DNA from: Escherichia coli
GTDB lineage: Bacteria; Pseudomonadota; Gammaproteobacteria; Enterobacterales; Enterobacteriaceae
Reading direction: 5' to 3' (one strand)
Length of the DNA: 64,000 nucleotides
Assembly (NCBI RefSeq): GCF_003334305.1
Contig: NZ_QOWS01000015.1
In this document: positions 55,235-55,810 of the stretch, one piece after another
Layout: each line of letters begins with the position of its first letter
How positions within the stretch are numbered: the first letter of the stretch is position 1
Translations under genes and position numbers: made by a program
The notes under the pieces: generated by a model
Databases searched by the model: none
Told to the model about the DNA's origin: nothing
The model's input: only the letters and a program-made list of their open reading frames with translations

Positions 55235-55810
55235 ATGGAATACTTTGATATGCGTAAAATGTCGGTGAATCTGTGGCGAAATGCTGCCGGTGAAACGCGC
55301 GAAATTTGCACTTTCCCACCGGCAAAACGTGATTTTTACTGGCGTGCCAGCATTGCATCCATCGCGGCGAATGGGGAGTTTTCTTTGTTTCCCGGCATGG
55401 AAAGGATAGTGACGTTGCTGGAAGGCGGCGAGATGCTCCTTGAAAGCGCAGACCGCTTTAACCATACCTTAAAACCGTTACAGCCTTTTGCCTTTGCAGC
55501 GGACCAGGTGGTAAAAGCGAAACTGACGGCAGGGCAGATGTCGATGGATTTCAACATCATGACACGCCTGGATGTCTGTAAGGCGAAAGTCAGAATTGCC
55601 GAACGTACGTTTACTACCTTTGGCTCACGCGGCGGGGTGGTGTTTGTGATTAACGGGGCGTGGCAACTGGGCGACAAACTGCTCACTACCGACCAGGGCG
55701 CGTGCTGGTTCGATGGCAGGCACACCCTGCGGCTTTTACAACCGCAAGGTAAACTGTTGTTCAGTGAAATCAACTGGCTCGCTGGTCATTCGCCGGATCA
55801 AGTTCAGTAA
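55235..55810 (+). CDS. ves: HutD-family protein Ves
   Basis: Start at internal ATG (MEYFDMRKM...), about 191 aa; 3' end overlaps the cho 3' end. Confidence 0.85.

Follow-up and report, generated by a model that had tools for sequence, protein, structure and literature searches.

The ves and cho genes of Escherichia coli converge, and their coding sequences run into each other at the 3' ends. The window (the whole stretch of DNA that was analysed, 64,000 nucleotides) holds them in the order astE-spy-ves on the plus strand, cho-nadE on the minus strand, and then osmE on the plus strand again. The features discussed here are collected in Table 1, and all positions are those of the window unless stated otherwise.

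Table 1. Features of the ves/cho locus, in window positions.
Feature	Position	Strand	Remarks
Bidirectional spy terminator	55052-55112	both	Minus-strand hit 55066-55052; 26-bp hairpin, -40.8 kcal/mol on plus, -34.4 on minus
ves sigma-28 (FliA) promoter	55155-55182	+	AACGTAAATCACCCGAGTTGCCGATAAC, exact match to FliA ChIP-seq motif (PMC4183435)
ves CDS	55235-55810	+	191 aa, HutD-family protein Ves; NCBIfam equivalog NF008488 match 1-191/191, 427 bits; RefSeq annotation
RNase III-type duplex in ves	55360-55381	both	About 390-410 nt past cho stop (PMC7373196 Table S3)
RNase III-type duplex in ves	55648-55668	both	About 100-120 nt past cho stop (PMC7373196 Table S3)
11-bp hairpin	55724-55750	-	20 nt downstream of cho stop; no U tract; conserved within Escherichia only
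ves/cho CDS overlap	55770-55810	both	41 nt; Ves codon positions 1, 2, 3 opposite Cho 1, 3, 2 (phase 123:132)
Eight-residue Cho tail PANDQRAS	55773-55796	-	Outside family model, varies between species; stop is antisense of Ves Ile-Asn codons (ATC AAC)
Six-codon Ves extension SPDQVQ	55790-55807	+	Escherichia/Citrobacter clade only; other genera stop (TGA/TAA) at 55790-55792, where this clade has TCG/TCT
cho CDS	55770-56657	-	295 aa, excinuclease Cho, GTG start; NCBIfam NF007833 match 1-287 of 289-position model, 580 bits; RefSeq annotation
RNase III-type 21-bp duplex in cho	55977-55997	both	p19-captured; 167-187 nt past ves stop; mapped with 2 strain substitutions (PMC7373196 Table S3)
LexA box of cho	56671-56690	-	CACTGGATAGATAACCAGCA; overlaps mapped cho TSS at ~56681

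The overlap and what chance would give

Reading codon by codon, the ves stop (TAA, 55808-55810) falls within the coding sequence of cho, and the cho stop (TGA, 55772-55770 on the minus strand) within that of ves. The initial annotation had given the same two ends and the same 41 bp, and RefSeq agrees. It had also allowed for a true stop of either gene lying upstream of the overlap. There is no such in-frame stop, and both frames are backed by homology from end to end.

The longest mechanical open reading frame for ves starts at a TTG at 55172. This is inside the ves promoter, and the ATG at 55235 is therefore taken as the real start. A sequence search of the PDB finds the HutD structures 5fcc and 1yll as relatives of Ves, but the alignments end at residue 149 and are uninformative on the Ves tail.

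On the MG1655 chromosome, RefSeq places cho at 1823515-1824402 (+) and ves at 1824362-1824937 (-), with the same 41-bp overlap annotated. Published coordinates were converted by taking the window position as 1880172 minus the NC_000913.3 position. The stretch from 55100 to 56800 is 100% identical in several RefSeq E. coli chromosomes, and the identical overlap is annotated in the RefSeq record that matches it in this way. A search of 5426 complete E. coli genomes found the stretch in every one, and the 121-nt junction is ungapped in 5415 of them.

The window and the matching RefSeq record are offset by 1 nt over part of their length. The offset starts before window position 7848, and is cancelled between ~35133 and 36458. 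The record also annotates an IS200/IS605 tnpA and tnpB (InsQ family) pair at window ~8052-9699.

It could be asked if a wrongly called stop or frame only makes the two proteins appear to overlap. The last eight residues of Cho are outside the NCBIfam model and the last six of Ves are missing in most genera, which is what such an artefact might look like. However, the reading frames fix both stops, the homology noted above backs both frames, neither gene has an earlier in-frame stop, and Citrobacter has the same stops as the 5415 E. coli genomes. An annotation artefact is hardly credible. Full-length homology, a stop inside the partner's coding sequence on either side, and recurrence in related genomes together make ves/cho a convergent overlapping gene pair.

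Among the 64 annotated genes of the window, antisense phase 123:132 has 0.0475 stops per codon. At that rate, an antisense run of 13 codons stays open by chance with P = 0.53. This means that the overlap is no greater than chance gives. Of 12 convergent pairs in the window, three overlap by 35-44 nt (nimR/yeaL by 44, ves/cho by 41 and ynjH/nudG by 35). The ves/cho overlap is real, and it is ordinary.

Convergent overlaps have been surveyed before, by Lillo and Krakauer in 2007 (PMC2174442). They counted 58 in E. coli. For convergent overlaps of at least 5 nt, phase 123:132 was the most frequent in their survey (49%). The main origin was stop-codon mutation, and an intrinsic terminator was present in only 20% of the E. 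coli genes involved. The ves/cho pair resembles these in every respect: two genuine genes, encoded on opposite strands, with common 3' ends, phase 123:132, an origin by stop-codon mutation with 3' extension, and no intrinsic terminator, as in ~80% of such E. coli genes. There is no substantive difference, and 41 nt is mid-range, near nimR/yeaL and ynjH/nudG. Both the overlap of the coding sequences (in RefSeq) and that of the transcripts (in a published excludon list, PMC12288877) are already on record.

Two other pairs in the window are on that same list. These are nimR (13605-14426 +) and yeaL (14383-14829 -), which share positions 14383-14426, and yoaI (14999-15103 +) and yeaK (15104-15607 -), which have zero spacer and abut at 15103/15104.

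How the overlap came to be 41 nucleotides long

The comparative set consists of 80 loci encoding Cho relatives, one genome per species, and in each of them the stops of cho and ves were located. At 61 enterobacterial loci of this set ves lies near cho, and in 53 of those 61 the coding sequences overlap. The lengths are 45 nt (two loci), 41 nt (15), 32 nt (five), 23 nt (16), 15 nt (three), 10 nt (one), 7 nt (six, with locus L039 among them) and 4 nt (five). A further five loci have a gap of 3-48 nt between the genes, and three have an insert of 1.7-1.8 kb.

The genera differ in these lengths. Within the 61 loci, 41 nt is confined to Escherichia and most Citrobacter. The 32-nt overlap occurs in Leclercia, Silvania and some Enterobacter, that of 23 nt in Enterobacter and Lelliottia, and that of 4 nt in Kosakonia.

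In most genera, Ves has 185 amino acids and ends in WLPGH followed by the stop. The DNA alignment has CAT-TGA/TAA there, where Escherichia and Citrobacter have CAT-TCG/TCT. The Cho stop meanwhile is at the same site in Enterobacter, Citrobacter and Escherichia, and is the antisense of Ves AT(C/T)-A.. codons (Ile-Asn/Thr). With the Ves stop lost and the Cho stop site shared, 23 + 18 = 41 nt, and the alignment shows this path.

The conserved cores of the two proteins end at Ves His185 (55789) and Cho Asp287 (55797), 7 nt apart. Past residue 287, the Cho tail differs among species in both length and sequence. Two real genes abut here without a spacer, and each short, poorly conserved C-terminal tail reads the antisense of its partner's end until the first stop. 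For Cho, conserved Ves codons for Ile-Asn/Thr, read in antisense, supply that stop. For Ves, an Enterobacter-type overlap of 23 nt gained 18 nt through stop-codon drift, with TGA/TAA turning into a serine codon (TCN) in the ancestor of Escherichia and Citrobacter.

Neutral drift of stops, combined with transcriptional read-through, is very probably the best account of the locus. One finding counts against drift: the exact length of 41 nt has been kept in Escherichia and most Citrobacter despite ~20% protein divergence. In this 41-nt clade, conservation of third codon positions is also higher inside the overlap than outside, at 0.82 versus 0.69 for Ves (14 sites) and 0.94 versus 0.65 for Cho (13-14 sites). 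This fits dual coding dominated by Ves, and selection on the arrangement would fit it too.

Both C-terminal peptides might instead be needed, with the overlap kept for that reason. The pattern S-P-x-x-V-Q is indeed kept in the Ves tail across Escherichia and Citrobacter. It does however face a conserved E-I-I/T-E-L segment of Cho, so that Cho coding can account for the pattern. Ves stops at GH in most genera, and Cho tails vary in length and sequence. Functional tails are thus very improbable as an explanation. As an outcome of stop drift, ves/cho is a clean worked example of how a convergent overlap grows by stop-codon loss.

One of the loci with a 45-nt overlap, L046, comes from a record titled Chryseobacterium sp. 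18061. Its cho-ves locus is enterobacterial, and agrees with that of Citrobacter sp. 18056 (L078) in the length of the overlap and nearly so in the tails. Contamination or mislabelling of the record is probable.

Terminators, promoters and overlapping transcripts

A terminator scan found no terminator-like site in or beside the ves/cho junction, and the folds of both 3' flanks are no better than those of shuffled sequences (z = -0.14 and -1.52). The initial annotation had noted that no terminator separates the stops, and this holds up. An Rfam scan of 54400-57900 has no match at the junction. A shared bidirectional intrinsic terminator would show between the stops as a palindrome rich in G+C, with A and T tracts on its flanks; in E. 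coli ves/cho there is no spacer, and no such site.

A small hairpin does lie just past the cho stop (Table 1). It is not claimed as a cho terminator, since a U tract is lacking and conservation is limited to Escherichia.

The first intrinsic terminator ahead of any cho read-through transcript is the bidirectional one of spy. The spy 3' end has been mapped at 1825060(-), which is window 55112 (PMC7815308).

Genomes without ves show what this terminator does elsewhere. There are 19 such loci among the 80, and the neighbouring genes could be checked in nine: two Salmonella enterica subspecies, Citrobacter sedlakii, Intestinirhabdus, Klebsiella pneumoniae, K. grimontii, Raoultella, Pluralibacter and Enterobacter sp. 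10-1. All nine retain osmE-nadE-cho with spy downstream, and ves is absent. In seven of the nine, cho converges on spy over 74-146 nt, and the spacer holds a palindrome, AAAACCGCCGG...CCGGCGGTCTT, of -22 to -64 kcal/mol. This palindrome is a shared bidirectional terminator. Its E. coli homologue is the hairpin at 55052-55112, between spy and ves, which means that in E. coli ves separates cho from the terminator that cho uses elsewhere.

The cho-spy loci of Salmonella, Klebsiella and Raoultella share with the E. coli locus the cho gene and its neighbourhood, osmE-nadE-cho ... spy-astE. The difference is that those genomes lack ves, and have the 74-146 nt spacer with its strong palindromic terminator instead. 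The ves/cho pair therefore illustrates what follows when a gene is placed between its neighbour and that neighbour's terminator. In the extracted loci without ves (L007, L011 and L070 among them), the cho-spy terminator spacer is at ~3860-4020.

Some loci that do have ves have a spacer after all. Two of the four spacer-bearing junctions examined show a palindromic hairpin between the stops, those of Enterobacter sp. ENT03 (L045, ~3877-3904) and Pseudescherichia vulneris (L051, ~3877-3922). Their cho-ves spacers measure 28-46 nt and carry a G+C-rich palindrome, for example GCCCCTGAACCGGCAGGCGATTGCCGGTTCAGGGGGC. It has the look of a bidirectional terminator acquired by these lineages, or of a REP-like insertion. 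The cho-ves gaps of L055 and L066 are of similar size.

At the other end of ves is a sigma-28 promoter. In 59 of 61 loci, the 130 nt before ves contain a -10 element like GCCGATAA, with at most one mismatch; chance is estimated to give ~0.05 per locus. With this motif upstream, ves also behaves as a member of the FliA regulon would: the value for its expression was 18 in motile MG1655 and 0 when fliA was deleted, a change that the published table does not flag as significant (PMC4183435).

The cho promoter carries a CTG-N10-CAG box, as expected of a gene in the SOS (LexA) regulon. The sequence CACTGGATAGATAACCAGCA is the LexA box of cho. All 68 loci in which cho starts at the expected position have CTG-N10-CAG upstream of the gene. 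The cho transcription start itself was mapped at 1823491, or window 56681 (PMC6131387).

SMRT-Cappable-seq has in addition found a nadE-cho co-transcript besides the one from cho's own LexA-controlled start. It begins at the nadE start at 1822427 and covers window 57745-56657 on the minus strand. Part of cho transcription thus escapes LexA control.

The nadE-cho spacer contains two Rfam matches, to the ES036 (CssrF) sRNA at 56765-56807 (-), with 42.9 bits against a gathering score of 37.6, and a weak one to naRNA4 at 56811-56847 (+). Both look like REP-type repeats.

Published data show that transcripts of the two genes overlap. In Table S1c of Huang et al. 2020 (PMC7373196), where cho is called ydjQ, its sense/antisense RPM are 7.9/19.2 in wild type; the rnc-14 mutant has 6.4/22.0 and rnc-38 has 5.7/34.6. 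For ves (ydjR) the same three samples have 156.7/4.7, 173.0/1.8 and 244.7/8.6. For cho, each figure is a single value, with no replicates or spread shown. In wild type, nadE has 120/2.1 and spy 37/2.8. Antisense RNA therefore exceeds sense RNA on cho by 2.4-6 times.

The same study captured double-stranded RNA with p19. This amounts to 20-75 RPM for cho, 4.5-117 for ves and 1-8 for spy (PMC7373196 Table S1b). For ves, the two SOLiD sets gave 106-117 RPM and the four Illumina replicates 4.5-24. The individual duplexes of Table S3 are perfectly paired and of the RNase III type. Because they lie in both genes, the transcripts must overlap over at least ~640 nt.

The pair was also listed in 2025 by ExcludonFinder, among 165 convergent excludons that recurred in half or more of 58 MG1655 transcriptomes (PMC12288877). 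Like the other members of that list, ves and cho are adjacent convergent genes with overlapping transcripts, and double-stranded RNA and RNase III products have been detected. The published tables thus agree that the transcripts overlap as in a convergent excludon. Excludons are however defined by overlapping UTRs and reciprocal expression, whereas in ves/cho it is the coding sequences themselves that overlap.

With no terminator at the junction, transcripts read on antisense into the partner gene. The antisense RNA on cho likely stems from ves read-through, rather than from an internal promoter. Transcripts of ves started by sigma-28 would run on into cho, and LexA-controlled cho transcripts would run on into ves, probably until Rho or the bidirectional spy terminator stops them. 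The resulting double-stranded RNA would then be cut by RNase III.

The SMRT-Cappable-seq supplements have zero entries near the junction, and Term-seq (PMC7815308) has 3' ends here only in the 5' part of cho and at the spy terminator. Among the former, one 3' end is Rho-dependent and lies 24 nt inside the cho frame (1823539, window 56633, minus), and a bicyclomycin-sensitive site is at 1823784 (window 56388, minus). This suggests that cho transcripts terminate prematurely in unstressed cells. Termination of read-through is probably Rho-dependent, or for cho takes place at the spy terminator.

Does the overlap regulate anything?

The initial annotation proposed that transcription of either gene may interfere with that of the other. 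The first half of this has fared well: the antisense RNA on cho, the duplexes and the excludon list all point to transcription of one gene reaching the other. Functional interference has not, given that cho sense RNA does not rise in rnc mutants. It stands at 7.9 RPM in wild type versus 6.4 and 5.7 in the mutants, with antisense rising only in rnc-38, all of these being single values without replicates. Regulatory interference between ves and cho is unproven.

A stronger version would be that the arrangement is a selected regulatory excludon. The absence of a terminator would then be maintained by selection, ves transcription would repress cho (through collision or RNase III), and cho, once induced by the SOS response, would repress ves, so that expression of either gene would exclude that of the other. 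The excess of antisense RNA on cho speaks for this, as does p19-captured RNA, which is above the level of spy on cho, and also on ves where the two SOLiD sets are concerned. So does the place of cho-ves on the published list (PMC12288877). The sigma-28 -10 element of ves (59 of 61 loci), the LexA motif of cho (68 of 68) and the overlap of the coding sequences (53 of 61) have moreover all been retained.

Against it is first of all the cho sense RNA, raised in neither rnc mutant. The arrangement is also not kept everywhere. Five lineages have a spacer, with a palindromic hairpin in two of the four junctions examined, and three have the 1.7-kb insert. Salmonella, Klebsiella, Raoultella and others do without ves, and there cho has a normal bidirectional terminator. 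The length of the overlap drifts among genera. Antisense RNA is pervasive in any case, with double-stranded RNA reads coming from 87% of genes. Finally, literature searches gave no dedicated study of the ves-cho pair, and no experiment on it. A selected excludon is on balance unlikely. If it were nevertheless true that antisense RNA limits Cho, the motility or cold/stress expression of ves would be linked to a back-up excision nuclease.

A second pair in the window has a similar layout. The ynjH gene (38037-38309 +) and nudG (38275-38682 -) converge with a 35-nt overlap of their coding sequences, at 38275-38309. In wild type and the two rnc mutants, the sense/antisense RPM of nudG are 9.0/45.4, 3.8/29.2 and 5.6/17.0, and those of ynjH 80/2.7, 79/0.9 and 27/2.5 (PMC7373196). 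Expression of ynjH is reported to depend on FliA (29 versus 2, flagged significant). This means that two genes of the window reported as FliA-dependent, ves and ynjH, each put antisense RNA over a DNA-care gene, cho and nudG respectively, in excess of its sense RNA.

Since ves has a conserved sigma-28 promoter and is not followed by a terminator, a proposed reading is that the flagellar programme drives antisense RNA over cho. Extended to both pairs, the programme would drive such RNA over cho (from ves) and over the nucleotide-sanitising nudG (from ynjH), damping two DNA-care genes in motile cells, and SOS-induced cho would in turn silence ves. This is a long shot, less probable still than the selected excludon. 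The shared antisense pattern of ves/cho and ynjH/nudG is at the same time the one thread that might repay experiment.

In the form given by PMC4183435, the FliA motif of ynjH falls on the minus strand at 37998-38025, and so is directed away from that gene. A sigma-28-like motif with a better orientation, TAAAGTTT-N11-ACCGTTAT, is on the plus strand at 37976-38002.
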